Shown piece by piece: positions 10,930-38,637 of a stretch of DNA of 64,000 nucleotides (the first letter of the stretch is position 1; each line of letters starts with the position of its first letter). Source of the stretch: an uncultured Bacteroidales bacterium (GTDB taxonomy: Bacteria > Bacteroidota > Bacteroidia > Bacteroidales > UBA10428); contig CAWBNI010000015.1 of assembly GCA_963790105.1 (NCBI GenBank), positions 133,793 through 197,792 on the forward strand, in the 5' to 3' direction. The translations under genes were made by a program, and so were the position numbers. The notes under the pieces were generated by a model. The model made no database searches and was not told where the DNA came from. It saw only the letters and a program-made list of their open reading frames with translations.

Positions 10930-10967
10930 GTTCTGCAGTTCTGCAGTTCTGCAGTTCTGCAGTTCAG
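10930..10967 (+). repeat. octamer tandem array (GTTCTGCA) x4.6
   Basis: TTCTGCAG occurs at 10931-38, 10939-46, 10947-54 and 10955-62, followed by TTCAG. The array starts 6 nt after the tdh stop. Confidence 0.95.
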
Positions 10968-10982
10968 ATACCTCAATTACAT

Positions 10983-11033
10983 AAATCACCTAATCACCTA
11001 ATCACTAATCATCTAATCACCTAATCACCTAAC
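10983..11033 (+). repeat. degenerate octamer tandem array (TAATCACC) x6
   Basis: AAATCACC TAATCACC TAATCAC TAATCATC TAATCACC TAATCACC TAAC. It ends 3 nt before the kbl ATG at 11037. Confidence 0.95.
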
Positions 11034-11036
11034 AAA

Positions 11037-12233
11037 ATGTACGGAAAAATCAAAACCCACCTGGCAAACGAGTTGAAAGCCATTGAAGAGGCAGGTCTCT
11101 TTAAGAAAGAAAGGATAATTACCTCGCCGCAGGATGCATCCATCCGGTTAGCCGGAGGAGAAGAGGTACTGAATTTCTGTGCCAACAATTACCTGGGCCT
11201 TTCCTCCCATCCTGCACTTATCGATGCAGCAAGAAAAGCCCTGGATTCGCATGGATATGGAATGTCGTCGGTTCGTTTTATCTGCGGAACTACTGATCTT
11301 CATAAAAAACTCGAGGAAAAAATTGCCCAGTTTTTTGGTACTGAAGATACAATCCTTTATGCCGCCTGCTTCGATGCCAACGGGGGAGTTTTTGAACCCC
11401 TGCTGGGTGAAGAGGATGCCATTATTTCCGATTCCCTGAATCATGCTTCCATTATTGACGGGGTGCGCTTATGCAAGGCACAGCGTTACCGGTATGCCAA
11501 TGCCGATATGGCTGACCTGGAACAGCAACTGATCAGCGCCCGGGAAAACCGGTTCAGGCTGATTGTTACTGATGGTGTATTTTCAATGGACGGAAATGTA
11601 GCACCGGTTGATCAGATCTGTAAACTGGCAGAAAAATATGATGCCATGGTAATGGTGGATGAATGCCATTCAGCCGGCGTTGTGGGTGAAACTGGCCGCG
11701 GTGTAACCGAATTATATAATATCCGCGGACAGGTAGATATAATTACCGGAACCCTTGGAAAAGCATTTGGTGGAGCTATCGGCGGATTTACCACTGGCCG
11801 TAAGGAGATTATCGATCTGCTAAGGCAGCGTTCACGTCCCTATCTGTTTTCAAACTCCCTGCCACCAATGATCACCATGGCAGGCATCGCCATGTTTGAT
11901 ATGATGGAGGAAACGACTGAACTGCAGGACAGGCTGCATCAGAATACGGAATACTTTAAAAAGGAAATAATCAAGGCCGGCTTTACGATCAAACCTTCAA
12001 AATCGGCCATTATCGCCATCATGCTGTTTGATGCCAGGTTATCGCAGGATTTTGCGGCCCGTCTTCTGAAGGAAGGCATTTATGTCACCGGTTTTTATTA
12101 TCCTGTGGTTCCAAAGGGAGAAGCACGCATACGTGTTCAGCTATCTGCCGCCCATACACGCGAAAACCTCGATAAGGCGCTGAAAGCCTTTATTAAGGTC
12201 GGTAAGGAACTAAAGGTTACCAATCCGCAATAA
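11037..12233 (+). CDS. kbl: glycine C-acetyltransferase (2-amino-3-ketobutyrate CoA ligase)
   Basis: 398 aa. It belongs to the alpha-oxoamine synthase family, with the PLP-lysine context [10 protein letters not shown] and HASIIDG. Confidence 0.9.
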
Positions 12234-12870
12234 CCGTCCTGTTTCCGGTAACCACGTCCCCGATCTTCACATTGATTTTTGTACCTACGGGGAAAAACAT
12301 ATCCACCCTCGACCCGAATTTGATAAAGCCAAGTTCATCGCCCTGGATAACCTGTTTTCCTTCGTAGGTATAGGAAACAATCCGCCTGGCCACAGCCCCG
12401 GCGATCTGCCGCACCAGGATCATTTTTCCATTGCTGCCCTTTATGACGATTGTGGATCGTTCATTTAATTCCGATGATTTTGGATGCCATGCAACAAGGT
12501 ATTTTCCGGGGTGATATTTGTAATAACTCACTAATCCGCTAATGGGGTAACGGTTTGCATGTACATTCAGGGGTGACATGAAGATGGATACCTGAATGCG
12601 CCTGTCTTTGAAATATTCCTTTTCCATGACTTCCTCAATAACAACCACCTTTCCGTCAGCTGCACTCAGCACCAGCGAATCATTCGGTATTACGGAACGG
12701 TCAGGATTCCGGAAAAACCAAACCACCATAAACAGAAAGGCTATGGATGCAATGATCAATATGGATTGCAGCCAGGTATTCCGAACGGCCCAGTAGATTA
12801 AAAGATTAAAACTACTGATGACAAGGAAAAAAATAAGGATAATAATGATCCCTTCTTTATGAATCCTCAT
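12217..12870 (-). CDS. psd: phosphatidylserine decarboxylase family protein
   Basis: 217 aa. N-terminal TM helices, then the short Bacteroidota-type Psd with FGSRVD near the C-terminus (autocleavage GS site). It lies upstream of cdsA-like lipid genes. Confidence 0.8.
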
Positions 12871-12880
12871 GTCGTTTTTT

Positions 12881-13702
12881 TTAAAGGTTACTTAGACTAA
12901 GATACACAGCAGCCAGGGGCATTACAAACAGGATTGAATCAATTCTGTCGAGAAGGCCACCGTGTCCGGGTATAATCTTTCCGGAATCTTTTTGCCCTAC
13001 ACTTCTTTTAAAAAGAGACTCGGTAAGATCACCAAAGACACCAAATACAGAAACGATAAGGGCAAGGAATAACCAGTCAGTTCTGTCCAATACGCCCATG
13101 ATCAGGTGCAGCCAAAGGGCACAGATAAGGGTCAGGACTGCTCCACCGATAGCCCCTTCCCACGATTTTTTGGGTGAAATACGCTCAAATAACCGGTGAC
13201 GTCCGATTGACATTCCTACAAGGTAGGCCCCTGAATCATTTATCCACACAAGGGTCATTATTCCAAGGATAATGCGGTGGGTGTATGCATGTTCATTGCC
13301 AATCGGAAAAGCCAGAAAATTAATCACGCTTAGAGGAATGGAAACGTAAATAATGCCCAGGAAAGAAATGGCCGTATTTCTCATCCCATCCGGTTTATCA
13401 GAATAAAGAGCCAGGATGAAAATTAAAATAACAAAAGGAAGAATAAGAAACAGGAGCCTGGGATCAGCCAGGTGTGCCGAGACCAGAAATGCCAGTATAA
13501 AGGCTGCACCGCCTGTAATCATCGATGGGATAACAGGCGGGTAAGCTCCCGAAGCCGCAGACAAGGCATAAAATTCATAGAGTGCGATCAGGTTGATCAG
13601 CAGGAAAACTAAACCGAAGGCAAATTTACCCATGAAAAGTGACCCAATAATGATCACCAGGTATATAAAACCGAATGCGACGCGTTGAATGAAATTTTTC
13701 AA
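12881..13702 (-). CDS. cdsA: phosphatidate cytidylyltransferase
   Basis: 273 aa polytopic membrane protein with the CdsA signature SLFKRSVGQKDSGKIIPGHGGLLDRIDS. Confidence 0.9.
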   Translation of the reverse strand: MKNFIQRVAFGFIYLVIIIGSLFMGKFAFGLVFLLINLIALYEFYALSAASGAYPPVIPSMITGGAAFILAFLVSAHLADPRLLFLILPFVILIFILALYSDKPDGMRNTAISFLGIIYVSIPLSVINFLAFPIGNEHAYTHRIILGIMTLVWINDSGAYLVGMSIGRHRLFERISPKKSWEGAIGGAVLTLICALWLHLIMGVLDRTDWLFLALIVSVFGVFGDLTESLFKRSVGQKDSGKIIPGHGGLLDRIDSILFVMPLAAVYLSLSNL

Positions 13703-13728
13703 ACTTCGGGATCTTTTAGCAGATATGA

Positions 13729-15801
13729 TCAGGCAGATTGCTTGACTTCCAGACCTTCTTCACCGGATTTGCTTGGTTTCACACGTTTTGGACTTCTGCG
13801 CTCTTTTTTGGGTTTTTCGGGCATTTCAGGCATCTTGCCTTTCTTTTTCCCAAAAATTTTCTCAAGATCCTCTGTAAAGATCACCTCTTTTTCCAGCAAT
13901 TGTTCGGCAAGCTGCACAAGACCGACTTTATGTTCATTTAATAATGCGATTGCCCTCACGTACTGCGCATCAATAATGTCTTTCGCTTCCTTATCAATCA
14001 ACTCAGCGGTTTTATCACTGTAAGGTCTCTGAAAAGCATATTCATTCTGGCCTGTGGAATCATAAAAGCTAATATTTCCAATGGCATCGCTTAATCCAAA
14101 GTAAGTAACCATGGCATAAGCTTGTTTGGTTACCCGTTCAAGGTCATTCAATGCACCGGTGGATATTTTACCGAAGGTAATTTCTTCTGCAGCCCTTCCG
14201 CCCAGTGTAGCAGTCATTTCCTCGAGCAGCTGGTCCTTTGTTGTGATTTGTCTTTCTTCAGGAAGATACCATGCAGCACCCAATGATTTTCCGCGTGGAA
14301 TGATGGTTACCTTTACAAGCGGGGCTGCATGTTCAAGCATCCAGCTTACGGTAGCATGGCCGGCTTCATGGTATGCAATGGTCTTTTTTTCATCCTGGGT
14401 AATGATCTTGTTCTTCTTTTCAAGACCACCCACAATCCTGTCAATAGCATCAAGAAAATCCTGTTTCTGAACCGATTTTTTATTTTTTCTTGCAGCAATC
14501 AGGGCAGCTTCATTGCACACATTGGCAATATCTGCACCGGAGAATCCCGGAGTCTGACGTGCCAGAAAATCCACAACCAGGTCTTTTTCAGTTTTGATGG
14601 GCCTGAGATGTACCTGGAATATTTCCTTTCTTTCATTCAGGTCGGGCAATTCAACATAGATCTGCCTGTCAAATCTTCCGGCCCTGAGCAATGCCTTGTC
14701 GAGGATATCTGCCCGGTTTGTGGCAGCCAGGATAATGACACCTGCATTGGATGCAAATCCATCCATCTCGGTCAGTAGCTGGTTCAGTGTATTTTCACGT
14801 TCATCGTTGGCTCCGAAATTCGGATTTCTTCCCCGGGCACGGCCAATGGCATCAATTTCATCGATAAATACGATGCAGGGAGCTTTCTCCTTTGCCTGTT
14901 TAAACAGATCACGCACGCGTGATGCACCCACACCTACAAACATTTCTACGAAGTCGGATCCCGATAATGAAAAGAAGGGAACATGAGCTTCACCGGCCAC
15001 TGCTTTGGCAAGGAGTGTTTTTCCGGTACCCGGAGGACCTACAAGCAAAGCACCCTTGGGAATCTTACCTCCCAGGTCAGTATATTTTTTCGGCTTTTTC
15101 AGGAAGTCAACAATTTCCTTGATTTCCATCTTGGCCTCTTCCAGACCGGCCACATCTTTAAAATCGAGCCTGATGTTTTCATCCTTATCAAATATTCTCG
15201 CCTTGGATTTACCCACATTGAATATGTTGGTTCCTCCTCCTCCACCGGCTCCTCCGCTCATACGCCTGAAAATGATCATATAGATCACAACCAGAATGAT
15301 TATGGGCAGCAATACATACAAGGTGTCTCCAAAAGTCCGCTTGCGGATGTATTCCGGATAGATCCTGGCCTCATCCGGTAAACCGGCCTGGGCGTCATCA
15401 AGCATTTTTTTGAAAATATCATTTGAACCAACAGGCATAGTATACTGCGGGCCTGTCTTTGAGATCGCCGTAAATCCCTTGCTGGCATTTTTCTGATGCT
15501 TCGGCTCATTTAAATATTGTTCTTTTATAAATATTTCAGCATTTTGTTCATTTACGATCTGTATCTTTTCAACTTCTCCTTTTAACAGCAGCTCGTTGCG
15601 GAAGAACTTCCAGTCAATAACTGTAGGACCCTGTCCCGAATCAAAAAAATAAATCAATATAATGGCTACACCAATCAGGGCATAAATCCAAATTGCATTG
15701 AAACGGGGTTTCTTTCCTCCCAGTAAATTATTGGGCGGTTTAGTCCCGTTGGTATTTTTTTCTTCTTCCTTTTTTCCTTTTACCTCTTTATTTTCTTCCA
15801 T
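13729..15801 (-). CDS. ftsH: ATP-dependent zinc metalloprotease FtsH
   Basis: 690 aa. Walker A GPPGTGKT, the AAA second region of homology, and the zinc site HEAGHA. Confidence 0.95.
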
Positions 15802-15813
15802 GCTATAAGCAAA

Positions 15814-16200
15814 TTAATCTTCTTTAATGAATGTAATTTCAGCATCTCCCCACAAATCTTCCAATTTATAATATTCCCGGGTTTCAGGCTGGAAAATATG
15901 AACTACAATATCCCCATAATCAAGCAAAACCCAGGTTGCATTTTGAAGACCTTCCCGGTGATTAATGACAACCTGAAGTGTATTATCAACTTTTTCTTCA
16001 ACCGAATCAGACAGCGCCTTGACCTGTGTTCCTGAATCACCGTGACAGATTATAAAATTATCACAAGGTGCATATCCCAGCTTTCTAAGATCTATATTGA
16101 CAATTTTCTTCGCTTTTTTTTCCTGTAATCCTTCTATTATATATTGTAAGAGTTGTTCGTGATTTCCCAAACCGGATAGTTTTAATATTTTACAATGCAA
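15814..16200 (-). CDS. rsfS: ribosome silencing factor RsfS
   Basis: 128 aa. RsfS/iojap-like sequence (DYGDIVVHIF, EDLW) immediately upstream of ftsH. Confidence 0.8.
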   Translation of the reverse strand: MHCKILKLSGLGNHEQLLQYIIEGLQEKKAKKIVNIDLRKLGYAPCDNFIICHGDSGTQVKALSDSVEEKVDNTLQVVINHREGLQNATWVLLDYGDIVVHIFQPETREYYKLEDLWGDAEITFIKED

Positions 16201-16351
16201 AAATAGTGAATTTATCCATTTGCACTGAGGTTTAAATGGCTCAACTATTTTTCAAACAACACCAATCCTATCACAATTTTCGTTATTTTACCTGATCAAT
16301 AACAATACCAAATCTACCGTTTCTTCCTATTCAATTATAAATATTCCTTTA

Positions 16352-17106
16352 ATGAGAACAGTAACATTGGGCTTTCCCCTTATACACCTGACCTCTGTGG
16401 ATTCTACCAACAAATATGCTGCCGGGATATTGCGCCAGGAGAACGCCACTGAAGGTACTGTAATTTTGGCAGATGTTCAGACCCGCGGTAAGGGACAGGG
16501 AGACAATATCTGGCTGAGTGATAATGGATTGAACCTGTTATGCAGCATTATTTTAAAACCGGACTTTCTGCCTGCCTTTAAGCAGTTTTATTTGTCGATG
16601 TGCATTGCAACCGGAATAAATGATTGTCATAACTGATCTTGGAATCCGGTCACAGGTTAAATGGCCCAATGATATTCTGATTAAAGGGAAAAAGGTTGCA
16701 GGTATTCTGATCGAAAACACAATCTTATCCCAAAATCTCCATACCTCTATCGTTGGAATCGGGTTAAATGTGAACCAGGTATCATTTCCTCCCGAAATTC
16801 CCAATCCCTGCTTCCCTGGCAGGAGAAACCGGAAAATCCTATGATGTGGGTCAATTGCTTGAAAGACTGCTTCTCTTTCTCGAAAAGAGACTCAACCAGT
16901 TATATGCTGAGGATTTTGTTGCGATCAAATCGCAATACCTGAACAGTCTCTGGCTTTTGAATACCCGTGCCCGATTTACCGATCAGAAAGGTGTTTTTGA
17001 AGGCCGTATCGTTGATGTGGCTGAAAGCGGAGAACTGTTGATCCTCACTTCCGGCGGGGAAACGAGGATGTACGGATTCAAGGAGGTGGAGTTCAATGAA
17101 CAATGA
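16352..17106 (+). pseudogene. birA: biotin--[acetyl-CoA-carboxylase] ligase, split into three frames
   Basis: Fragments are 16352..16636, 16620..16844 and 16846..17106. Biotin-protein-ligase loop TRGKGQGDNIW, KWPNDILIKGKKVAGILIE, and a C-terminal SH3-like domain. Confidence 0.8.
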
Positions 17107-17282
17107 ACAATGAAGATGCTGAATGAACAATGCTAAACGTGAAAAACTAATAGCTAAATGCTAAAAGTGAAGCTGCAATGCAGTAATCTGAGTCTCAGTC
17201 TGCAGATTGCGGAATGCAAGTCTGCAGTAATCTGCAGTAATCCAGTATCAAGCCTATCTAGTACAGCCTACAGTATCCAGTA
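17094..17282 (+). repeat. mosaic of short tandem repeats (CAATGAA x3; TCTGCAGTAA x2; CAGTATC-type units)
   Basis: CAATGAA at 17094-17114 spans the birA stop codon. TCTGCAGTAA is at 17221-17240. AGTATCC/AGTATCA units run to 17282. The mosaic fills the whole convergent intergenic space. Confidence 0.85.
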
Positions 17283-17703
17283 TCATCCTTCCTTAGCAGA
17301 AAAGTCCACCTCGGAGAGCTTATCCACCATCAAATCCACAAACTGCTGAAGCGGGATTGCGGGCCATCATTTCAAGAAACATATTCAGATTGGCCTTTAG
17401 TTTGAGTTTTACTTCGGATAAATCCTTTCCCGATTCATTTATATTGATAATGAACGTAAAATCAGCAGAACTGTCTTCCGAAGCACCTACAGTCAGCATT
17501 GACCAGGGCTGTTTTTCCTGAATTTCAAGTCCAACAGTGCCGAGACCCTGGATATCAAAGATTATTTTCTCCTGTGTAATCTGCAAATTGTTCAGCCGGT
17601 CCTGGGGCAACAAACCGGAGAAATTCCTGAAATCAGAGATATAATTGAACACTGTTTCCTGGCTGCCTTTTGCTATTCCTGTTTTGCTTTCAATGGCAAG
17701 CAT
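17283..17703 (-). pseudogene. small SRPBCC/START-like hypothetical protein, C-terminal frameshift
   Basis: The ORF 17320..17703 ends abnormally. Removing one G from GGG at 17353-17355 gives ...MMARNPLQQFVDLMVDKLSEVDFSAKEG with a stop at 17283-17285. The family call rests only on general resemblance. Confidence 0.4.
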
Positions 17704-17713
17704 ATTACGAATA

Positions 17714-18379
17714 TTAAATTTTTAAAAGAAAATTTACTGCAACAGGCCCTGCACTCCATGTTGCCGGAGACTGTCGCCATTGCTGAAGCGTAGGCAACAT
17801 ATCGGATTGGATATACCCGCTTTCAATGGCCAGTTCAATTAATGCATTATAATTACTTAATGTATACAGGCTGCATCCTGAAGCAAGAAAACTTTCCACT
17901 GCTTTTGGAAATCCATATGTAAAAATAGCTGCCATTCCCAGCACATCACAACCTGCATTCCTCAAAGCTTCCACGGCTTTCAGACTGCTGCCTCCTGTTG
18001 AAATAAGGTCTTCAATTACCACCACCTTTTGCCCCTTTTTGGGATCTCCTTCGATCAGGTTTTCGAGTCCATGTCCCTTGGGCTCGCTCCTGACATACAT
18101 AAATGGCAGTCCCATCATATCCGCCACCAGTGATCCATGTGCAATCGCTCCGGTTGCAACACCGGCAATAGCTTCTGTTGATAAAAATTTTTCTTTTATT
18201 AATTCTACAAAGCTATATTTGATTGCGTTTCTGATGTCGGGATATGCCAGTGTTTTTCTGTTATCACAGTAAATTGGGGATTTCCATCCTGACGCCCATT
18301 GGAAAGGGTTGTCAGGATTGAGTTTTATTGCATTACACTGCAAAAGAAGGCCGGCTATTGTTTTCTCGAATTTTTTCAT
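17714..18379 (-). CDS. pyrE: orotate phosphoribosyltransferase
   Basis: PRPP-binding motif KVVVIEDLISTGGSS. I chose the start at the internal Met (MKKFEKTIAGLL), which gives about 221 aa. Confidence 0.9.
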   Translation of the reverse strand: MKKFEKTIAGLLLQCNAIKLNPDNPFQWASGWKSPIYCDNRKTLAYPDIRNAIKYSFVELIKEKFLSTEAIAGVATGAIAHGSLVADMMGLPFMYVRSEPKGHGLENLIEGDPKKGQKVVVIEDLISTGGSSLKAVEALRNAGCDVLGMAAIFTYGFPKAVESFLASGCSLYTLSNYNALIELAIESGYIQSDMLPTLQQWRQSPATWSAGPVAVNFLLKI

Positions 18380-18386
18380 ACTGTAA

Positions 18387-19003
18387 ATGTACAAAGTTTT
18401 TTTCAACGACAGGGTTGTGCTTTTAACCGATGACTTCATCAGAAATTTTCAGGTTAAGTATGGCTTGTTTTATAAATACAGGAATACGGAAGATCTGAAG
18501 GAACTGATTGATTTCTACCGCAATCTGAAAAGAATTGATACGTTGTTTATTTTCCATCATGATCTGGATGAATTGCAGGAAAGATTCAAATCGTGTTTTT
18601 ATATGGTGGAGGCCGCGGGCGGATTGGTATGCAATGAGGAAGGCCGGTACCTGATTATGAAGAGGCGTGATAAATGGGACCTCCCGAAAGGGCAAGGTCA
18701 ATTTCGGTGAATCAATTCCGCGATGCTGCACTCAGGGAGGTTTCCGAAGAATGCGGCCTCAGCAGTCTCGAGATCATCGGTCCGCTGATGTCAACCTATC
18801 ATTGTTACTGGATTGATGGCCAGTCGATTTTAAAAAGAACCAGCTGGTTTGATATGAAGGCAACCGGAAATGAGCCGCTGGTGCCGCAAACCGATGAGGA
18901 TATCACCGAGGTGAAGTGGGTAAGAAAGGAAGATCTGCGGGAAATAACCCGCAATACCTATATGGGAATACTGGATATCCTGAAATACAAAAACCTGCTA
19001 TAG
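18387..19003 (+). pseudogene. NUDIX hydrolase, one frameshift near 18690
   Basis: Fragments 18387..18710 and 18674..19003. The Nudix box is split across the junction (WDLPKG... / ...AALREVSEECGL). Confidence 0.75.
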
Positions 19004-27737: not shown

Positions 27738-29259
27738 TCACAGTTTAAACCATGCTTCAGTCCAGTCGGCTTTTAATCCAACCCTGGAGCGGTGTTCAAA
27801 CTCATTTTTTTTCGGATCATAAATATAATCTTTTTTCCATTCCGCCTGATTTTCTACCACTGCTTTCAGGGCATGAAATAAAATAATCCACCTCTTCATT
27901 GTCATAACCGGATGAAGGGAAACCCTTACCCAGCCAGGCTTTTCTGAAAGATCCCCATGGTTGATCTTTTCTGTGATCTGGTGCGACCGGTCATAACTTA
28001 CTTCCAGGAGAAAATGTCCGTAGGTGCCGGCACAGGCGCAACCACCCCTTACCTGAATTCCAAAGCGGTCACTCAGCATTTTCACGATCAGGTTAAAATG
28101 AATATCCGGATGATAAAATGAAATGATGCCCAGGCGATGCTGTATGTTCCCGGCCAGGATCCTGATTCCCTCCACCTGCTGAAGTCCTTTCATCATCCGG
28201 TCAACAAGTTCTTCTTCGCGCTGCATGATCTGCCTTCACACCCATCTGTTCTTTCAGCTTCATGGCCAGGGCAGCCCGGATAGCCTGCAAAAAGCCCGGG
28301 GTTCCCCCGTCTTCCCTGGTTTCAATATCATCAACATATTTATATTCGCCCCACGGATTGGTCCAGTCAACAGTTCCGCCGCCCGGATCATCGGGGATAT
28401 CCGATTGGTATAACGAAGAATCGAATATTAAAACACCACAGGAACCGGGCCCCCCCAGAAATTTATGCGGCGAAAAATAAAGGGCATCTATTTTCTGCAT
28501 CGGGATCAGCGGGATGCATATTGATATCCACATAGGGAGCAGAGGCGGCAAAATCAACAAAGCATAAGCCATTGTATTCATGCATGATGGCTGCCATTTC
28601 GTGGTAGGGGGTAATAATGCCGGTAACATTTGAACAGGCTGTAAATGCGCCAATCTTGAATTTCCGGTCGGCATACTGATTCAGGGCTTCACGCAGGGCA
28701 TCGAGATTGATAAGCAAATTGCCGTCAGGAGGTATCATTACCACATCGGCAAGGGTTTCATACCAGGAAGTATGGTTTGAATGGTGTTCCATGTGGGTAA
28801 TAAAGACAACCGGACGGTCTTTTTCATCAATACATTCCTTTTTAATCCTCCTGTTGCTTGTGCGGAGACCCAGCATCCGCTGAAGCTTATTCACCACAGC
28901 CGTCATGCCTGCACCTGCCGTAATGATCACATCCTTTTCCCCGGCATTAACCTGCTTTTTTAATATATTCATGGGCATAACGGTAACTTAATGTCATCCG
29001 AATGCCCGTTTCATTGGTCCCGGTATGCGTATTGGCAACAAAGGGGCCAAAAACACTGGTCAGTTTTTCTTCAATTGGCGCATATAACCGGCCGCTGGCC
29101 ACCCAGTCGAAATAATAGATTTTCTTCCTGCCATAAGGAGAATCAAACCAGGCATCCTGTCCAATGATCTGATTTCTGAATTGTTCGAAATAACGTTCAA
29201 GGTTCCGGCATAGGGAATAATTTTCAAAAATAACCCCTAAAAATAATATACTTTTTCAT
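27738..29259 (-). pseudogene. class V aminotransferase / cysteine-desulfurase-like PLP enzyme, four or more frameshifts
   Basis: Fragments are 27738..28226, 28201..28674, 28463..28978 and an N-terminal piece (ERYFEQFRNQIIGQDAWFDSPYGRKKIYYFDWVASGRLY) at about 28947-29234. YFSPHKFLGGPG contains the PLP lysine. One shift maps to the T6 run at 28956-28961 (T5 restores ...HEYIKKQVNAGEKDVIIT). The start at 29259 is tentative. Confidence 0.7.
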
Positions 29260-29404: not shown

Positions 29405-29479
29405 GGTGGTCGTAGCTCAGTTGGTTAGAGCGCCAGATTGTGGCTCTGGAGGTCGCCGGTTCGAGCCCGGTCTTCCACC
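29405..29479 (+). tRNA. tRNA-His (anticodon GTG)
   Basis: Cloverleaf folded by hand. Extra G-1 (29405) pairs with discriminator C73 (29479), the bacterial tRNA-His hallmark. D arm GCTC/GAGC. Anticodon arm CCAGA-TTGTGGC-TCTGG. T arm GCCGG-TTCGAGC-CCGGT. The acceptor stem has two adjacent mismatches (T5:T68, C6:T67). No encoded CCA. Confidence 0.8.
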
Positions 29480-29489
29480 CTAGAGAAAA

Positions 29490-29528
29490 GTTCTGCAGTT
29501 CTGCTGTTATGCAGTTCTGCAGTTCTGA
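29490..29528 (+). repeat. octamer tandem array (GTTCTGCA) x5, degenerate
   Basis: GTTCTGCA GTTCTGCT GTTATGCA GTTCTGCA GTTCTGA. It begins 11 nt after the tRNA-His 3' end and uses the same unit as 10930-10967. Confidence 0.95.
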
Positions 29529-29608
29529 TCCGCGGGTTATCACGCACTCTCCGTGAGTTTCGCTTCGCTTCACCCACGGTTATTCAGATTCTGCCCCTTC
29601 AGGGCCCT

Positions 29609-29630
29609 TCTCTCACCTCTCACCTCTCAT
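29609..29630 (+). repeat. heptamer tandem array (TCTCACC) x2.8
   Basis: TCTCACC TCTCACC TCTCAT at 29611-29630. The same TCTCACCTCTCA string recurs at 38591-38602. Confidence 0.85.
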
Positions 29631-29652
29631 ATCATCGGAGCTTAACCTTCCC

Positions 29653-29712
29653 TACTCCCTGCTCCTTACTCCCTACTCCCTACTTGTCCCTCAGTCCCTA
29701 GTCCCTAGTCCC
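29653..29712 (+). repeat. degenerate heptamer tandem array (TACTCCC / TAGTCCC), about 8 units
   Basis: TACTCCC TGCTCCT TACTCCC TACTCCC TACTTGTCCC TCAGTCCC TAGTCCC TAGTCCC. Confidence 0.9.
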
Positions 29713-29778
29713 TATGTTTAATTGAACAAATATCTACATAACGGGTTAAAGAAGGAAAGTCATTAAACAACCAATGCC

Positions 29779-30162
29779 ATGGATAAAAAAAGCCACCCTA
29801 CACCCGGAAATGGCAAGATCTGCTATATTGAAATACCTGCCGCTGATATCAGCGAGTCTGCTTCTTTTTATACCGCGGTATTTGGATGGGAAACCCGCCA
29901 CCGCGGTGACGGTCATCTGGCTTTTGATGATGCCATAGGTGAGGTAAGCGGCACCTGGGTAAAAGATCGCAAACCAACTACCGAAGCAGGACTCCTTATA
30001 TATATTATGGTAGCTGATATCAACCTGGCTGTTGAACAGGTAAAATCGCACGGCGGAGTTATTGTGCAGCCTGTGGGAATGGATGCCCCCGAATTGACTG
30101 CCCGGTTCAGGGATCCTGCAGGCAATATTCTTGGACTTTACCAGGAACCCGTACAAGGATAA
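29779..30162 (+). CDS. VOC-family (glyoxalase/bleomycin-resistance fold) protein
   Basis: 127 aa. Small VOC-like pattern (ICYIEIPAADISESASFYTAVFGWE...; ...RFRDPAGNILGLYQ). Confidence 0.7.
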   Translation: MDKKSHPTPGNGKICYIEIPAADISESASFYTAVFGWETRHRGDGHLAFDDAIGEVSGTWVKDRKPTTEAGLLIYIMVADINLAVEQVKSHGGVIVQPVGMDAPELTARFRDPAGNILGLYQEPVQG

Positions 30163-30184
30163 TTAAACCCTAAAATCAAATAAT

Positions 30185-30719: not shown

Positions 30720-30722
30720 AAT

Positions 30723-31586: not shown

Positions 31587-31926
31587 TCAATTCATCATCC
31601 TGATAAGTTATTTCGCATAGACTGTTTCCGTTCCGATCCCAATATTCCCATTTTCCGGATAATTTGCCATTCTGAAAAAACCCTCTCCGCTTCATCTTGC
31701 CGTTGCTGTACCAGATCTGTGCCTCGCCGTGAAGACGGCCTTCTTTATAGGTAAATTCTTCAAGCACCTTCCTGTCGTTCAGAGATACCACTGAACATTT
31801 TCCGGTAAAAGGACCATAGCTGCCATCCACATAAAAAATATCCGGACTGATCTCTGCCTCCGTAATAACTACCTTACTGGAGCAGGCAAACGTGGTTAAC
31901 AATAATATAGCGATTAATCCTTTCAT
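31561..31926 (-). CDS. MORN-repeat-variant (YwqK-like) lipoprotein
   Basis: 121 aa. Signal peptide with Cys (TFACSS), then repeated G-x-W-x-Y-Y/W-x-NG units (GEAQIWYSNGKMK, GKWEYWDRNGN). Confidence 0.6.
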   Translation of the reverse strand: MKGLIAILLLTTFACSSKVVITEAEISPDIFYVDGSYGPFTGKCSVVSLNDRKVLEEFTYKEGRLHGEAQIWYSNGKMKRRGFFQNGKLSGKWEYWDRNGNSLCEITYQDDELISTKYPSH

Positions 31927-32053
31927 AACGGGGAACTGATTTGCTTTCGTTTCAATTATATAACGGAAATTCCCAGCCGGGAGTTCGCTTTTATTGATGA
32001 ACCCGGTAAATCACAAATTGAATTATCGATTATGAGGGATGAACAGTGAACCG

Positions 32054-32497
32054 TTATTTGTTAAGTTCCGCGTTCCTTTTCCAGTCCTCGGCCCTTCCTA
32101 TGAATTTCATGCCAAGAACATACCCTTTTAACGTCATTGTATTGGCGTCTCCGTCAAACCAGGCATAGCAGTCGTAGGTTTTGCCATTATCGGGGTCATA
32201 TACTGTGCCACCCTCCCAACGGTTTTTCTCTGTATTGAATGAAAAATCCTTCAGGATCATCAATCCCCAGATCTTTTTGGACCGCTGGGCCTCATCCGGA
32301 TTATTGACATCCAGTTTGTCTTTGTCTTCCTTTAACCATTCCACTTTACCATAATATTTGCCATTGGTTGCCTTGAATATCCTGACCTGGGAAGTACCCT
32401 TGGCCGGAACCCAAATGCCGAGGATCTTATCTGCCTGACCATAGGTAAATGCAGAGGCAAACAAAAGACAGGCAATGAAAAGGAGGTTTTTCTTCAT
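32054..32497 (-). CDS. DUF2147-like secreted protein
   Basis: I chose the start at MKKNLLFIA. ILGIWV...GKYYGKVEWLKE...DPDNGKTYDC...LTLKGYV matches my recollection of DUF2147. Confidence 0.6.
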   Translation of the reverse strand: MKKNLLFIACLLFASAFTYGQADKILGIWVPAKGTSQVRIFKATNGKYYGKVEWLKEDKDKLDVNNPDEAQRSKKIWGLMILKDFSFNTEKNRWEGGTVYDPDNGKTYDCYAWFDGDANTMTLKGYVLGMKFIGRAEDWKRNAELNK

Positions 32498-32533
32498 AGT
32501 GATCTGAATTAAAGGATTAAACATGCACTAAAG

Positions 32534-33028
32534 TTAATTTTTTCTTTTTAATATGATGAATTCATAGGTAAAATCGTTCTGGGGATCTGGTTCCGGCATT
32601 TCCCGGCTGATCTCCTCCCATTGATCTTCAACGATATCCGGAAAAAAAGTATCCGCATCAAAGGAACGATTAACCCGGGTTAGATAAAGGCGGTCGGTAT
32701 ACGGAAGAAACTGCCTGTAAATGGAAGCGCCGCCGATTACAAAACTTTCCTCATTTTCAGGGCAATTTTTAATTGCCTCATCCACCGAAAATACAGTCAC
32801 ACAACCATCGAAATGATCATCCGCGTTATCGGTTATCACTATATTCCTCCTGTTCTTCAGGGGCCTTACCGGCAAAGAAAGATACGTGTTCTTGCCCATG
32901 ATCACCGTATGATCGAGCGTGAGCTGTTTGAACCGCTTTAAATCAGCTGAAATATGCCACAGCAGGTCGTTATTCTTTCCTATTCCATTGTTTTCAGCAA
33001 TAGCTACGATGATTGAAATATTTTTCAT
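32534..33028 (-). CDS. folA: dihydrofolate reductase
   Basis: 164 aa. IVAIAENNGIGKNNDLLWHISADLKRFKQLT and VIGGASIYRQ motifs. Adjacent to thyA. Confidence 0.9.
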   Translation of the reverse strand: MKNISIIVAIAENNGIGKNNDLLWHISADLKRFKQLTLDHTVIMGKNTYLSLPVRPLKNRRNIVITDNADDHFDGCVTVFSVDEAIKNCPENEESFVIGGASIYRQFLPYTDRLYLTRVNRSFDADTFFPDIVEDQWEEISREMPEPDPQNDFTYEFIILKRKN

Positions 33029-33037
33029 TCGAGGTAT

Positions 33038-33832
33038 TTAAACAGATATGGGTGCTTTGATATGCGGATGGGGATCGTAATTCTCCAATGTAAAATCTGA
33101 AAACGTAAAATCTTCGATTTTTTTTACATCGGGATTGAGCTTCATCACAGGCAATGAACGCGGCTGTCGGGCAAGCTGGGTATTCACCTGTTCCATATGA
33201 TTATTGTAGATGTGTGCATCCCCCAGCGTGTGGATAAATTCACCTGGCTTCAATCCGGTCACCTTTGCCACCATCATCAGCAACAGGGAATAGGATGCAA
33301 TGTTAAATGGAACACCCAGGAAAATATCTGCACTTCGCTGATATAGCTGGCATGAAAGCCGGCCATCAGCAACATAAAACTGGAATAACACATGACAGGG
33401 TGGCAGTGCCATATTGGATAAATCACCCACATTCCAGGCACTGACTATATGCCTGCGGGAATCAGGATTTTCCTTGATACTGCGGATTACATTTGATATC
33501 TGATCGATTGATCCGCCCTGGTAGGATGGCCAGCTCCGCCACTGAAACCCGTATATATGACCCAGGTTCCCTTCTTTATCGGCCCATTCATTCCATATAT
33601 TTACCTGGTTATCGTTAAGATACTTAATATTCGTATCTCCTTTAAGAAACCAGAGTAATTCATATATAATGGATTTAAGATGGAGTTTTTTTGTGGTCAT
33701 TAACGGAAAACCATCGTCCAGGTTAAAACGCATCTGGTATCCAAATACGCTCTTCGTGCCGGTACCTGTCCTGTCCCTTTTCTCAGTGCCCTTATCGAGC
33801 ACATGCTGCAGCAAATCAAGATACTGCTTCAT
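33038..33832 (-). CDS. thyA: thymidylate synthase
   Basis: 264 aa. [12 protein letters not shown], active-site [12 protein letters not shown], and DAHIYNNH. Confidence 0.95.
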
Positions 33833-34135
33833 TCTTTATATCACTTTGTGCATGCTGTAAAAATAATAAAGATATTCTTATCCTTTTACCCGTGCCCTGT
33901 AAAGTTATTGGTACATGTTCATTTCTTTTAAGTTATTAACATTGAGGCACCATCAATTTTTTACTATTTTTAGCCATCTTTAAAGATGCAGTTTTCCTGT
34001 GCGGGTTATGATGTTTGGGATATTTTTCAGGATTGTATGGCATATTGACAACTTGCTGATACTTCCTACGTATATTCCAACAGTGAATCTGAATTTTTAA
34101 ATTTAATAACCTTTAAATTCGTTAACCACGCCTAT

Positions 34136-34747
34136 TTGAATACGATACAACATAATAAATCCGGCGTTTTGATCGTCGTGCTGTTACTGTGTCTTTGCTT
34201 TCCGGCGGTTGCACAATATGATTTCACAGCAAGTGAAACAACTGGTTATGCCCCCCTCAAAGTGAAATATCAATTTGTAAATTCAGCTTCAGTGGATACC
34301 ATTCTCAGTTATTACTGGGATTTTGGCAATGGGCAGACCAGCACGTTGAAAAGTCCGGATACAGTCATTTATGATGCTCCCGGAACTTATTCCCCTTCCG
34401 TTGTATTTAATAACCGGATGGATCTTATAATTACGAAATCGCAATACATTGAGGTTCAGAAGACTGAAGATGTGATTAGCATCTCAAATGTTTTTACACC
34501 GAATAACGATGGTTACAATGATGATTTTTTAGTGACAACTCAGGCTGAAGTCCCCTTAAAAATGAATATTTTTACCCGGGCGGGAATTCTTGTTTTTAAA
34601 ACAGAAGGCACCACGCTTTCATGGAATGGTTATGCAGCATCAGGACAAAAACTCTCAGCAGGAATTTACTTCTATACAATCGAAGCATTGGGTGCAGATC
34701 CCAATAATCTTTACAATAAAAAGGGATTCTTCTATATGTATCGGTAG
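34136..34747 (+). CDS. PKD-domain protein with gliding-motility-type (T9SS type B) C-terminal sorting domain
   Basis: 203 aa with a TTG start in the ORF track. Signal peptide, PKD-like YYWDFGNGQTS, and CTD hallmarks NVFTPNNDGYNDDF and GIYFYTIEA. Confidence 0.7.
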   Translation: MNTIQHNKSGVLIVVLLLCLCFPAVAQYDFTASETTGYAPLKVKYQFVNSASVDTILSYYWDFGNGQTSTLKSPDTVIYDAPGTYSPSVVFNNRMDLIITKSQYIEVQKTEDVISISNVFTPNNDGYNDDFLVTTQAEVPLKMNIFTRAGILVFKTEGTTLSWNGYAASGQKLSAGIYFYTIEALGADPNNLYNKKGFFYMYR

Positions 34748-34760
34748 AAAGAGGGGGCCG

Positions 34761-34932
34761 GTATTCAGTAACCAGTATTCAGTATTCAGTAACCAGTATT
34801 CGGTATTCAGTATTCGGTATTCGGTAATCGGTAATCGGTATTCAGTAATCGGTAATCCGAGTCATTCAGTCATCCAGTATCCAGCATCCAGTCACCAGCA
34901 TCCAGTCACCAGTCACCAGTCACCAGTCACCA
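34761..34932 (+). repeat. 24-unit degenerate heptamer tandem array (GTATTCA/GTAACCA/GTATTCG/GTAATCG ... GCATCCA/GTCACCA)
   Basis: Parsed unit by unit. 22 exact 7-nt units and two longer ones (10 and 8 nt). The composition drifts from GTATTCA-type to GTCACCA-type. The last unit ends 1 nt before the ATG at 34934. Confidence 0.97.
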
Positions 34933-34933
34933 A

Positions 34934-37199
34934 ATGAATTCCCTCAGTAAAATATTCTTCCTGCTGTTATTGATTTGCCTTGTGTATCCGGTAATGGCAC
35001 AAAGCAAACCTTCCGAACGTCCAAAAATTGGTCTGGTATTAAGCGGTGGTGGAGCAAAAGGTCTGGTACACATTGGTGTACTGAAGGTCCTTGAAGAGGC
35101 AGGCATTGTACCGGATTATATAAGCGGAACGAGTATGGGAAGCATTGTTGGCGGACTGTATTCAATAGGCTACACCGCCGGCGAGCTGTCTGAACTCAAC
35201 CAAACCTTACCCTGGCAGGTGATGCTGTCGGATTATGTCCCGCTCCGGAATATTTCCCTGGAGGAAAAACATGATTATAAGCGGTATTTCGCTGAACTTC
35301 CTATCCGAAAGCGAAAGATCATGCTGCCATCCGGATTGCTTGAGGGTCAGAACCTGTCTGTCCTTTTATCCTCCCTTACATGGCGAACTGCAGGTATTGA
35401 TTCATTTGACCATTATCCTTATCCTTTCAGGTGTGTTGGAACGGATATTATCAATGGGGAGATTGTGGATTTTAATTCGGGAGACCTCGCCCTGAAAATG
35501 AGGGCAAGTATGGCCATTCCCAGCGTATTTACTCCCGTGGTGCTGGATTCGTCCATGGTAATTGTAGATGGAGGGGTTATCCGTAATTTTCCGGTGGATG
35601 AGGTCCTTGATATGGGTGCAGATATTGTGATTGGCGTTTATGCCGGATTCAAGGAAAAGGAAACCTCGGAAGATCTCCAGTCGATGAGTAAAATTCTGAG
35701 CAGATCGGCAGCAAGTTATGGGATCTATGACTCACGTGAACAGGCAAAGAAAGTGGATGTGCTGATTGCACCTGAACTGAATGGCTATACCTCCTCTGAT
35801 TTCAACAAAAGTGTAGAAATAGAAAAGGCAGGTGAGGCAGCTGCCAGGGAACACATGACTGAATTACTGGCACTTGCGGCTGAACAGAAAAAATACGGTA
35901 CTCGCACAAAACCTGAGCCGTTGCCTGAGAAGGACAGCATTCAGATTAGTCGTGTGGTGGTAAACAAGCTGAAATACAATGATAAGAGCCTGATTTATGG
36001 TATGCTCAATATTCCAAGGAATACTTATGTTACAAAGGCAGAACTCCAGGAAGGACTGGAACGGCTCTTTGGCACACAGTATTTTGAGACGACTGAACTA
36101 TCGGTTTGAAAAAGACCAGACTGCTTTTCGCCTGATCATCGATGCCGAGGAAAAACCACCTTCTTCGCTGAAGGTATCCGTACATTATGATAATTTTTAC
36201 GGAGCGGGGCTTCTGCTGAATTTCACCAAGAGTAACTTCCTGGCCAGTGGTGCCAGGCTCACGCTGGTGGGCGATCTTAGCCAGTATCCCCAGGCAAGGA
36301 TTTACTACAGAAAATATACCGGCCATAAAAAGAAACTGCTCGCCGGTTTTGAATCCTATTATGAATCGAATATGATTCGTGTATATGTCCAGGGGGAAGA
36401 AATTGGTTATTCAAGACAGAATCATTTTACTTCAGAACTTTCCCTCAAACATGCCATCACACTGAACCAGCAAATTGGGGGCGGCCTGCTGTTTGAATAT
36501 TCAGCAGTTTATCCCAATAAGGCCATGCAAACGCTATATCCTACCGAGTTCAACTACAAGCGGTTTGGGTTTGCCGGTTTTGGCTTGTCCGGATCCTATA
36601 AACTCAATACGCTGGATGACGATCTTTATCCCCTTGAAGGAAGTGAAGTAGAAGTTACTCTGAAAGGAATCTATAATCCGGCCACTGATCTGAAATTATT
36701 ATCCGATACAATTGACACGGAAACATCCCTGTCCTCCTTTGGCAAATTGTATATCAATTATGGAACCTATACCCTGTTCGGACAAAAAACAAGCCTTCAC
36801 ACAGGGATATCACTTGGCCTAAGCAAAGATGCTTTTATAGCTTCGGATTACTTTTTTATCGGGGGATTCAAAGACAATTTACGACGCAACCAGATCCCCT
36901 TTGCCGGATATAAATCAGGGGAGGTGGTTGCTTCTAATATCGCACAGATCAAACTCGGATTGAACTACCAACTGACCCGCAATCTCCGGATACAGACTTT
37001 GGGCAATGTATTGATGACTTCAGGCAGTGTTAAGTCCCTTGGTGAAAACATAGTAAACCTTGATACCGGTAACCTTCATGTGGGTTACGGCGCAGGATTG
37101 CTTTATAAAACACCTCTCGGGCCTGTAAACCTGTTTTTATCCGGCAATAATATGGATTCCCACCTCCGGTTTTACATCAATATGGGCTTTACCTTCTGA
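34934..37199 (+). pseudogene. patatin-like phospholipase fused to an Omp85/BamA-like beta-barrel (PlpD-like), one frameshift near 36090
   Basis: Fragments 34934..36109 and 35997..37199. Patatin motifs GGGAKG, GTSMG (GxSxG) and VDGGV (Asp of the dyad). The C-terminal ~380 aa are beta-rich and end in an aromatic residue (...INMGFTF). Confidence 0.8.
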
Positions 37200-37776
37200 T
37201 CAGAATCGACTCCCGATTACTTTCCAGTCGAGAATATTCCAGAATGCCTGAACATAATCCGGTCTCCTGTTCTGATAATCGAGGTAATAGGCATGTTCCC
37301 AGACGTCACAGGTAAGAAGCGGGGTTAATCCCTTCTTCAGGGGATTGCCGGCATTGGATTCCTGGACGATCTCCAATTTGCCATCGGCATTTTTTACCAG
37401 CCAGGCCCATCCTGATCCAAACAGGGTGACTGCCGACTTGGTAAACTGTTCTTTGAACGCCTCAAAGGATCCAAAAGTACCCTGAATGGCATCGGCAAGC
37501 AAACCCTTGGGTTCCCGTTGTCCTGACGGGGAAAAGCTTTCAAAATAAAAAGTATGGTTCCAAATCTGGGCTCCGTTATTAAAGATCGCGCCATCTGCTT
37601 CGCGGATAATCTGCTCAAGGCTGGCATTTTCAAAGCGGGTTCCGGGAACCAGGTTATTTAAATTATTCACATAGGTTTGATGATGCTTTACCATAGTGAA
37701 AATCGATGGTTTGTTTCGTTATGAAGGGAACAAGCGCATCGGATGCGTAATTAAGTTTGGGTAATGCAAACGACAT
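37200..37776 (-). pseudogene. sodB: Fe-type superoxide dismutase, one frameshift at about 37688
   Basis: The N-terminus MSFALPKLNYASDALVPFITKQTIDFHYGK is in one frame (ATG at 37776) and HHQTYVNNL... is in ORF 37200..37694. Shortening TTT at 37687-37689 by one restores the frame. Fe-type AQIWNHTFY, and DVWEHAYY. Confidence 0.85.
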
Positions 37777-37851
37777 TCTAGTGGGTTTTAATTTGGTTAT
37801 TAATACCCACAAGTTAAGGATTTACGCGTAAAAATAAAAGAGTTTTATTCC

Positions 37852-38451
37852 CTATAGTTTCATTCGCCTGGCTACATTATCCCAGTTAACCACATTCCAG
37901 AAAGCCGCCAGGTATTCATTTCTCCGGTTTTGATATTTAAGGTAATACGCGTGCTCCCAAACATCGACCCCCAGAACAGGCATCCCTTTCACCTCGGCCA
38001 GATCCATCAAGGGATTATCCTGGTTAGGGGTGGAAGTTATTTTCAGTTCATCGCCTGTTTTGACAAGCCAGGCCCAGCCGGAGCCAAAACGAGTCATGGC
38101 GGCTGCGGTAAATTGTTCCTTAAACTTGTCGAATGATCCAAAATAACGGTTCAATGCATCCAGCACGTCTGAAGGAGGATTGCCACCCCCTTTGGGACCC
38201 ATTACCTGCCAGAACATGCTATGGTTGAAATGTCCGCCTCCGTTATTTCTCACAGCAACAGGCAATTTTGACACATTGGACAGTATTTCCTCGAGGCTTT
38301 TATTTTCCCAGATACCACCTGCCAAAGCATTATTTAAATTGGTAACATAGGCTTGATGATGTTTTGTATGATGGATTTCCATCGTACGGGCATCAATATT
38401 CGGCTCAAGTGCCGCATAATCATATTCCAGTTTAGGTAGTTCGAATGCCAT
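37852..38451 (-). CDS. sodA: Mn-type superoxide dismutase
   Basis: 199 aa. [17 protein letters not shown], Mn-type [17 protein letters not shown], and DVWEHAYY. Confidence 0.9.
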
Positions 38452-38525
38452 TGTTTTAAATTTAGTTGTTAATTGTTAATTGATTCTTAATCCGTGGTTT
38501 AACGGTTATAATTTTGCTTTGCATA

Positions 38526-38637
38526 TACTCTTATTCCTGACTCTACTCCGTACTCACTACTCCTGACTCACTTCTCACTCTCACTTCATCTCTCACCTCT
38601 CAACTGTCCTTGTCACTAGTCACTAGTCACTGGTCAC
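38526..38637 (+). repeat. degenerate 6-8-nt tandem array (TACTCC / TGACTC / TCTCACC / TAGTCAC units)
   Basis: TACTC TTATTCC TGACTC TACTCC GTACTCAC TACTCC TGACTC ... TCTCACC TCTCAAC ... TGTCAC TAGTCAC TAGTCAC TGGTCAC. It lies in the divergent sodA/waaA intergenic region. Confidence 0.9.

Follow-up and report, generated by a model that had tools for sequence, protein, structure and literature searches.

Tandem arrays of 7-8-nt units were found in five intergenic spacers, 10.9-38.6 kb into a 64-kb stretch of contig CAWBNI010000015.1 from an uncultured Bacteroidales bacterium (the whole stretch is referred to as the window). The five loci, A to E, hold about 12 sub-arrays whose units, or words, recur between spacers, are replaced at orthologous sites in relatives, and are oriented according to the nearest start or stop codon. 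Use of this vocabulary is a habit of a genus-level clade of uncultured Bacteroidales. An original prediction, made from the letters of the window alone, had described the arrays as a dispersed family resembling the short tandemly repeated repetitive (STRR) sequences of cyanobacteria.

Intergenic heptamer repeats have been known since 1990, from cyanobacteria and later from Xanthomonas and Beggiatoaceae, and we know of no established function or origin for any of them. The Bacteroidales clade is unusually informative, with many words, a clear orientation rule at starts and stops, and unit replacement that can be traced at fixed sites across graded relatives. One polarity in three unrelated phyla suggests a general constraint or mechanism worth explaining. 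Because the host phylum initiates translation without Shine-Dalgarno (SD) pairing, the idea that such arrays serve as unstructured leaders is directly testable.

Array inventory and shared vocabulary

Arrays were located with Tandem Repeats Finder (TRF) across the whole window and by direct reading, and exact coordinates were verified separately. A strict detector returned 6 arrays, whereas 30 dinucleotide-preserving shuffles averaged 0.2 and never exceeded 2. At locus A, array A1 (10929-10965, plus strand; AGTTCTGC, 4.6 copies) begins 4 nt past the TAA stop of a tdh-like gene, and A2 (10984-11032, plus strand; AATCACCT, 6 copies, G-free) ends 4 nt short of the kbl ATG at 11037. Locus B opens with B1 (17094-17132, plus strand; CAATGAA, 5.7 copies), which takes in the final four codons of a frameshifted birA together with its TGA stop (17104-17106). 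It is followed by B2 (17221-17249; TCTGCAGTAA, 2.2 copies) and B3 (17271-17288; CCAGTAT units), and the two together (17221-17288) read as GGATACT on the minus strand, directly past the stop of a minus-strand gene at 17320-17703.

The arrays of loci C to E all lie on the plus strand. C1 (29489-29527; AGTTCTGC, 4.9 copies) starts 9 nt past tRNA-His (29406-29480), and C2 (29610-29629; CTCTCAC, 3 copies), C3 (29649-29683; TCCCTAC, 5 copies) and C4 (29684-29714; TTGTCCC/YAGTCCC, 4 copies) form a tract (29610-29714) that is C-rich on the sense strand of a glyoxalase gene (ATG at 29779). Locus D (34760-34931, 172 nt) consists of a GGTATTC/AGTAACC/GGTAATC block, then AGTCATYC, AGYATCC and four copies of AGTCACC; it holds up to 18 copies by TRF and ends 2 nt short of the patatin ATG at 34934. 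At locus E, E1 (38541-38604; TACTCC/CTCACTT/TCTCACC units) and E2 (38610-38639; TTGTCACT/(AGTCACT) x3) are situated upstream of a conserved block of ~85 nt that precedes the kdtA ATG (38724). A two-unit member of the vocabulary, CTCGTCACTTGTCACT (6182-6197, minus strand; AGTGACA AGTGACG), overlaps the stop of the minus-strand gene 6186-8438 and falls outside the range that the original prediction had covered.

The sharing of units between loci was confirmed in every case that had been proposed: GTTCTGCA in A and C, CTGCAG in A, B and C, TCTCACC and TACTCC in C and E, and YAGTCMCY in C, D and E. The description of the arrays as strictly intergenic holds for nearly all of them and fails for B1 and the two-unit array, both of which run across stop codons. 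The minus-strand polysaccharide utilisation locus (SusC/SusD locus, 44-64 kb) was likewise correctly said to be free of comparable arrays. The arrays are not assembly artefacts, because the corresponding spacers of relatives (84-89% nucleotide identity) also hold arrays in independently produced Illumina and long-read contigs; among them are the independent JGI short-read contigs L183, L203 and L208 (public loci are cited by our own numbers).

Metagenome contigs were scanned for 2.5 units of AGTTYTGC, which gave at least 120 loci. About 55 of the AGTTYTGC loci listed (38-50% G+C) were mosaics in which the window's own vocabulary flanks the AGTTYTGC array. Upstream flanks consisted of (AGTGACR/AGGGACW)n; variants GGTTCTGC and AGTCRTGC and hairpins also occurred, together with the further words CTCTCAC, TCCCTAC/TACTCC, TTGTCCC/TAGTCCC, AGTCACC, GGTAATC/GGTATTC, TTAATCAC and ACAATGA. 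With AGTTYTGC left out of the count, 115 pairs of units identical up to rotation or strand were found across loci, against 17.6 in composition-preserving shuffles (maximum 28; 6.5-fold), which bears out the term dispersed family. The AGTTYTGC array started exactly in the AGTT register after a purine-rich tetramer in 28/52 mosaic loci (12.5% expected), and ended after AGT or AGTT in 25 loci. A single word, CCCTAARC, was found before kbl in L001 and after birA in L206. The shared words, the fixed register and the presence of CCCTAARC at two sites indicate that arrays at different loci are related copies and not independent inventions. Intergenic dispersal was seen in the window, in about 100 kb of relatives and in more than 55 metagenome loci.

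Density and period were taken from unselected Bacteroidales loci surrounding kbl (1.5 Mb in all), for arrays of three copies or more. Periods showed sharp peaks at 7 (31 arrays) and 8 (22), and arrays with a period of 6 or less were nearly absent. The 7/8-nt arrays were confined to spacers to a degree far beyond chance (76 intergenic vs. 14 coding, in DNA that is 88.5% coding; P = 6e-57), and the corresponding counts for 6/9-nt arrays were 18 and 25. The window's clade carried 12.5 arrays per 100 kb, compared with 2.3 elsewhere (about 5-fold).

Outside the clade, 62/79 other Bacteroidales loci had no 7-8-nt arrays, and L040/L045, L070, L075 and L081, from a few other lineages, were also rich in them. 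L040 and L045, both from other Bacteroidales metagenome-assembled genomes (MAGs), have 7-8-nt arrays of their own in the tdh-kbl spacer; they also carry, at orthologous positions (L040 6354-6396, L045 6390-6434), four copies of an 11-nt unit, TGTTATAACAT, which holds the 10-nt palindrome TGTTATAACA. Arrays of (AATTCTC)n recurred at L069 15748, L070 12573 and L074 6719, in Tidjanibacter-type MAGs and a termite-gut Bacteroidales MAG, which suggests that other lineages have separate word families. A proteobacterium-like contig of 58% G+C (L116 7350-7480; open reading frames (ORFs) for LemA, a DEAD-box helicase, RF3 and an RpoN-like protein by inspection) contained intergenic (TTCGCCC) x6 and (TTCTGCAR) x13, and a eukaryote-like seawater contig (L118/L134) was full of 7-9-nt arrays, including GTCACGC and AAGTGACG.

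Turnover, orientation and predicted structure

Syntenic contigs of relatives (83-89% nucleotide identity) were reached through kbl and patatin homologues; an exact-protein look-up of the window kbl matched no record. The proposed comparison across relatives showed arrays in the same spacers with differing unit numbers and, often, differing units. In the tdh-kbl spacer an array follows the tdh stop directly in all six versions, with the unit AGTTCTGC, AGTTTTGC or AGTCATGC, decayed in L205 (AGTTYTGC/AGTCATGC arrays orthologous to A1 occur in L001, L002, L203, L205 and L206), and a second array abuts the kbl ATG in all six, its unit being AATCACCT, ACAAATCA, TCAAATYA, TTCAAATT or CCCTAARC. After birA, CAATGAA was present in L002 and L205 and GGATRCT in L001, L003 and L206. 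C1 is conserved in L183, L207 and L209, and the C2-C4 tract is variable in those three.

Upstream of patatin an AGTCACC/AGYATCC array has the same place and orientation in L207, L208 and L209 and always ends ..CCAATG, so that this start-proximal array keeps its position and direction across a clade with 84-95% protein identity; the GGTATTC block of locus D is unique to the window. Locus E has arrays in three contigs (TTGTCCC/TGGTCAC in L207 and L208) and none in L209, and the adjoining block of ~85 nt is conserved in all four. The convergent spacer of the window, which contains a terminator and two units, takes the form STOP-(GGTATTC)n-terminator-(CTCGTCA)n-STOP in relatives: the array at 6182-6197 has grown to 4-5 units in L203, L205 and L206, where a GGTATTC array stands across the terminator. 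Between pairs of contigs, arrays were identical at 99% flank identity and different at about 87% or less. Near-identical contig pairs, used as a test of unit-number polymorphism, were mostly identical or did not cover the same array. The contig-pair pattern is that of slippage-prone repeats that are inherited vertically and quickly remodelled.

The common plus-strand orientation that had been reported is true in the window only; elsewhere the same words occur both ways, even within one spacer. Nor was the suggested link to the replication strand upheld. There was no significant leading/lagging bias (arrays occupied 8.7% of co-oriented spacers on the leading strand and 14.3% on the lagging strand; P = 0.15, with strands assigned from local GC skew only), and orientation tracked the nearest start or stop codon. 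Boundary polarity was counted with AGTTYTGC arrays and duplicate loci left out, in gene sense. Within 60 nt before a start codon, 46 arrays had C>G and 17 had G>C (P = 3e-4); within 30 nt after a stop codon, G>C arrays numbered 43 and C>G arrays 18 (P = 0.002). A single word can take opposite orientations at the two boundaries, as GGATRCT after birA vs. AGYATCC before patatin, or AGTGACR after stops vs. YAGTCAC before starts. From the boundary polarity it follows that a spacer presents a G-rich arm and then a C-rich arm, whatever the orientation of its genes. A fixed orientation of AGTTYTGC to genes was considered and rejected, since its arrays were random over all distances (9 '>>', 9 '<<', 8 '><' and 6 '<>'), and a bias emerged only when a stop codon was no more than about 30 nt away.

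Simple codon-based accounts of the polarity returned little. Stop codons occurred in 50 arrays in sense and 41 in antisense, a small difference for the stop-rich trailer idea, and ATG occurred in 7 vs. 7 within 30 nt in the test for ATG-free leaders. Depletion of NTG (21 vs. 36 within 60 nt) mirrored G-poverty. A G-poor leader as a universal rule was ruled out by G-rich arrays in L040 and L024.

Predicted RNA folding differed between the two boundaries. The AGTTCTGC arrays self-fold through CTGCAG palindromes, and predicted folds were strong for A1 (-19.6 kcal/mol, z = -3.3), for C1 together with an adjacent hairpin element that resembles repetitive extragenic palindromes (REP; -41.1 kcal/mol, z = -3.2), and for the B2/B3 region (z = -2.7). 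Start-adjacent arrays were predicted to be essentially unpaired (z = 0 to +1), with z = 0.0 for C2-C4 and z = +1.0 for E1/E2. Across all loci, arrays before starts lay in the less structured of their two orientations in 33 vs. 12 cases (P = 0.002), and arrays after stops in the more structured one in 33 vs. 18 cases (53 vs. 24 with AGTTYTGC included). Where both arms of a spacer carry the same word, a very long stem-loop is predicted (z = -5.3 and -9.4 in two spacers); no locus among the window's five carries both arms.

A2 stops 4 nt and D 2 nt short of the validated starts of co-oriented gene pairs, separated from them by a short A-rich linker, and therefore any mRNA that reaches kbl or patatin contains these arrays. 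One study describes translation in Bacteroidetes as proceeding without SD pairing, with initiation tuned by mRNA structure and upstream nucleotides (PMC6847099), which makes the earlier suggestion of structure-poor leaders reasonable for A2 and D. The suggestion thus fits the arrays that adjoin start codons, which are predicted to be unpaired, and has no obvious application to C and E, whose arrays are set apart from the gene by a conserved block, probably its promoter and leader.

Explanations and known repeat systems

The explanation that we favour, with about even confidence, is that these are hypermutable arrays born by slippage, with a shared vocabulary and modules copied between spacers, and filtered by selection at the level of the transcript. 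Slipped-strand mispairing at replication would allow arrays to grow, to shrink and to change their dominant unit. They would accumulate between genes only, because a 7-8-nt period is not tolerated in reading frames, and would expand until they abut stop and start codons. Ready-made modules, such as RAAA-(AGTTYTGC)n-AGT, often after (AGTGACR)n, may be copied between spacers by recombination or another mobility mechanism, so that both words and array boundaries would come to be shared. Selection on transcripts would then filter orientation. By start codons only G-poor, NTG-poor and unstructured arrays would persist, a leader that would suit SD-independent initiation in Bacteroidota. Past stop codons the G/U-richer, self-pairing orientation would persist, giving 3' hairpins or, with a complementary array on the far side of the spacer, very long stem-loops. 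The orientations that survive at each boundary may be only harmless or mildly useful. The data show the arrays themselves, their confinement to spacers, their turnover at orthologous sites, the vocabulary, the register at array boundaries, the polarity and the difference in predicted structure, whereas slippage as the generator, copying between loci, transcription of the arrays and any effect on translation or mRNA stability are inferred.

Several results weigh against this explanation. In the unselected loci alone the polarity is weaker before starts (22 vs. 10, P = 0.05) and not significant after stops (18 vs. 11), and the way in which a crude gene caller defines ORF ends could contribute part of it. 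Formally the polarity is the same as saying that every spacer, on either strand, runs from a G-rich to a C-rich arm, and a cause at the level of DNA could also produce it. The tdh-kbl spacer of L040 carries G-rich arrays. At C and E a conserved block, the probable site of the promoter, follows the arrays, which may thus be outside the downstream mRNA, yet their C-rich orientation is kept. No mechanism was found for copying between loci.

The arrays might instead be neutral by-products of a lineage's propensity for slippage, which fills spacers and has no effect on expression, with the polarity arising from the codon composition of gene boundaries and from the way loci were ascertained. At orthologous sites both units and copy numbers change rapidly, arrays come and go, the neighbours are unrelated housekeeping genes, polarity is marginal in unselected loci, and similar arrays turn up sporadically in many unrelated Bacteroidales and in the proteobacterium-like L116. 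All of this would be expected of neutral by-products, but words recur far above what composition predicts, unrelated loci have exact array boundaries in common, one word stands opposite ways at starts and stops, orientation correlates with predicted RNA structure in both directions, and the patatin start-proximal array is constant in place and orientation across the clade; on balance we find wholly neutral arrays somewhat unlikely. A second possibility is that each word is a site for a DNA-, single-stranded-DNA- or RNA-binding protein (S1, cold-shock, KH or nucleoid) that acts cooperatively at gene boundaries. A limited vocabulary that recurs between loci, a fixed register at array boundaries and arrays set directly at start and stop codons would suit such binding platforms, which have been proposed likewise for TAACTGA repeats (PMC4679880). 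We nevertheless regard them as unlikely: the words number at least 10-15, their periods are a mix of 7 and 8, no candidate protein was found, and the wholesale replacement of units at orthologous sites, with the array kept, is hard to fit to one specific reader.

Quite unlikely, in our estimate, is a third account, in which the arrays are arms of non-autonomous elements that insert in spacers, akin to bacterial interspersed mosaic elements (BIMEs), MITEs (miniature transposable elements with inverted repeats) or foldback elements. The recurring syntax (AGTGACR)n-(AGTTYTGC)n-hairpin-(C-rich arrays), the inverted arms that yield long stem-loops, the boundaries common to several loci, and the presence or absence between relatives, in the same spacers, of the REP-like hairpin and of a second dispersed element point that way. 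Against it, no target-site duplications or intact empty sites were recognised, no window locus of the five has the two arms together, and orthologous arrays change gradually and not all-or-none. Regulatory G-quadruplex or i-motif elements, as proposed for GGGAATC of Xanthomonas and GGGGAYT of Nostoc, are very unlikely to be the general case. (AGGGACW)n is a canonical G3N4 motif, of which two overlapping examples occur on the minus strand at 29671-29712 in locus C, and the strand and distance polarity matches that published for quadruplex-forming heptamers, but the motif is found at 1/5 window loci and most words have no G runs (AGTCACC, AATCACCT, GGTATTC, AGTTCTGC, CAATGAA and GGATRCT). Phase-variation (contingency) switches and an assembly artefact have next to no credibility as explanations. 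Phase variation classically acts on tandem repeats close to promoters and starts, but the genes next to these arrays are kbl, birA, tRNA-His, glyoxalase, patatin, sodA and kdtA, none of them a surface or contingency gene, and the arrays are outside ORFs. Expression tuning by slippage in the phase-variation sense, which had been raised as a role, is therefore unlikely, given housekeeping neighbours and arrays that do not differ at 99% flank identity. An artefact might be suspected from the several frameshifted window genes, which suggest long-read indel errors, but is refuted by the same arrays in the short-read contigs already named.

A more far-reaching idea, to which we give little weight, is that the arrays act in cis as a word code shared across the lineage, with about 10-15 hepta- and octamers set in boundary-specific orientation and fixed register. 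Such a code would be either read by sequence-specific single-strand-binding proteins or written by templated reiterative synthesis or by a mobility mechanism new to bacteria; foldback-type elements with tandem-heptamer arms would be one case of such a writing mechanism.

The cyanobacterial STRR heptamers, reportedly described by Mazel et al. in 1990, are CCCCAGT, TTGGTCA and CAACAGT. The likeness to them that had been claimed holds in kind. Both sets comprise several different heptamer words in tandem that are intergenic and dispersed, in the Bacteroidales case over the window, the relatives' contigs and the metagenome loci covered, and AGTCCCT is one substitution from a rotation of CCCCAGT (equal to the Nostoc GGGGACT), as AGGGACW/AGTCCCT is from GGGGACT/AGTCCCC. 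The likeness does not extend to the units themselves, which are essentially absent: no STRR dimer was present in the window, and among about 209 loci one STRR1 dimer (L195) and one STRR2 dimer (L060) were found. The window arrays also differ in that their host belongs to another phylum, periods 7 and 8 are mixed, the vocabulary is larger, and words are concatenated into mosaics. Enterobacterial REP/BIME sequences offer another comparison. They are extragenic mosaics of imperfect palindromes of about 35 nt, frequently positioned past the ends of genes or between genes transcribed together, that fold into hairpins once transcribed and are linked to REP-associated tyrosine transposases (RAYTs) and to IHF and gyrase binding. 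The Bacteroidales arrays resemble BIMEs as extragenic mosaics of few motif types in recurring order, here with a REP-like hairpin interleaved, but are built of 7-8-nt tandem units and not of palindromes of about 35 nt, so the arrays themselves are not REPs.

Heptamers GGGAATC in Xanthomonas and GGGGA(C/T)T in Nostoc are about 90% intergenic, with the G-rich strand coding 0-50 bp after stops and non-coding 0-50 bp before starts (Rehm et al., 2015; PMC4692102). They occur as paired inverted copies, at positions that are conserved in relatives with variable length and sequence, and are not linked to surface genes (PMC4692102). The Bacteroidales arrays agree in boundary polarity (43 vs. 18 after stops and 46 vs. 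17 before starts) and in each of these further traits. They differ in that the Xanthomonas and Nostoc genomes have one dominant, quadruplex-forming unit each, whereas most Bacteroidales words cannot form quadruplexes; the GGGAATC unit was essentially absent from the window and the fetched loci.

The original prediction knew of no such family in Bacteroidota, which was too strong. TAACTGA direct repeats have been described in marine Beggiatoaceae, some Cyanobacteria and five Bacteroidetes, as heptamer arrays a few nt upstream of starts and in forward orientation, and spacers of Gramella and Aequorivita have other heptamer repeats too, which relatives lack (MacGregor, 2015; PMC4679880). The arrays described here likewise occur just upstream of start codons, but they are as common after stops as before starts, and no TAACTGA dimer was found in the window or any fetched locus. 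As cited in two later papers, Mrazek et al. (2007) surveyed long simple sequence repeats (SSRs) with 5-11-nt units, dominated by heptamers and non-coding, for which slippage was proposed (PMC4679880, PMC4692102). Like these, the window arrays are longer than chance, and units that are not a multiple of three are kept out of coding DNA; the survey, as represented in those papers, defines a class, with no vocabulary, syntax or polarity. The literature search found no paper describing the Bacteroidales array family, and the repeat strings themselves matched only an unrelated virology paper. The family behaves like the STRR and long-SSR kinds and is not a member of any sequence-defined family, because the exact units of those families are essentially absent. 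It differs from them in the size of the vocabulary, the mix of 7- and 8-nt periods, the word mosaics with hairpin elements, and the host.

Neighbouring genes and other spacer elements

The genes that flank the arrays are ordinary housekeeping genes: a tdh-like epimerase and kbl at A, birA and a hypothetical gene at B, tRNA-His and a glyoxalase-family gene at C, a protein with a type IX secretion system C-terminal domain (T9SS-CTD) and PKD and a patatin-Omp85 protein at D, and sodA and kdtA at E. Pfam scans took in 20 window ORFs. The closest named relatives are Bacteroidales MAGs, and the window contains a SusC/SusD locus and a T9SS CTD protein. The minus-strand polysaccharide utilisation locus (44474-63802) encodes a SusC-like protein (54146-57559), a SusD-like protein (52517-54145), and GH43, GH127, GH92, BNR and FG-GAP proteins. 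Near locus E there is a tandem pair of minus-strand ORFs, of which 37852-38451 encodes a complete Fe/Mn superoxide dismutase (SOD) and 37200-37694 is at the position that matches a second SOD gene in L208.

Five window genes are split by frameshifts (birA 16352-17106, ROK 8585-9770, patatin-Omp85 34934-37199, kdtA 38724-39814 and an aminotransferase 28201-28978) and are single ORFs in relatives; similar splits were seen in the ENA loci L002, L206, L207 and L209. The splits probably reflect indel errors of long reads and not pseudogenes, and the window thus points to a long-read assembly. In L203 (5772-7067) the public call extends kbl by 33 codons, to 431 aa, through the start-proximal array, which has no in-frame stop. 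The kbl start being miscalled there, such arrays can corrupt automated start-codon calls; besides misleading gene callers, they are likely hotspots of metagenome assembly and binning errors.

A sigma-70 promoter scan was uninformative for Bacteroidota. The terminator search of array-bearing spacers returned one strong, bidirectional intrinsic terminator (6127-6162), between convergent genes, with a 16-bp stem and A and T runs on either side; relatives have arrays between each stop codon and the equivalent terminator. An Rfam scan of the window at gathering thresholds returned tRNA-His only, so that neither the arrays nor the hairpin element has a counterpart among curated RNA families.

The REP-like double-hairpin element (29528-29608, minus strand; core ATAACCGTGGGTGAA) is situated between the C arrays. 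It has the form GACCYCGAAGRGGTC ... ATAACCGTGGGTGAA..CCCACGG, with a remnant at 38492-38509 of the window. Elements of this type, about 60-80 nt long, occur in six or more spacers, and their presence at one site varies among relatives; copies were found in the tdh-kbl spacers of L001 (9880-9935), L002 (9910-9955) and L205 (9895-9960) and in the sodA-kdtA spacers of L207 (~9570-9620) and L208 (~8640-8690). Another dispersed element, which is roughly 150-330 nt long, has the core TAATCGAATGCAATGAGATTYCTCTG and may be MITE-like, was seen in L003 (~6195-6300), L146, L172 and L183. Its end is close to TCGCAGATT repeats, and in L183 it interrupts the tRNA-His/glyoxalase spacer, where the window has no such insertion.

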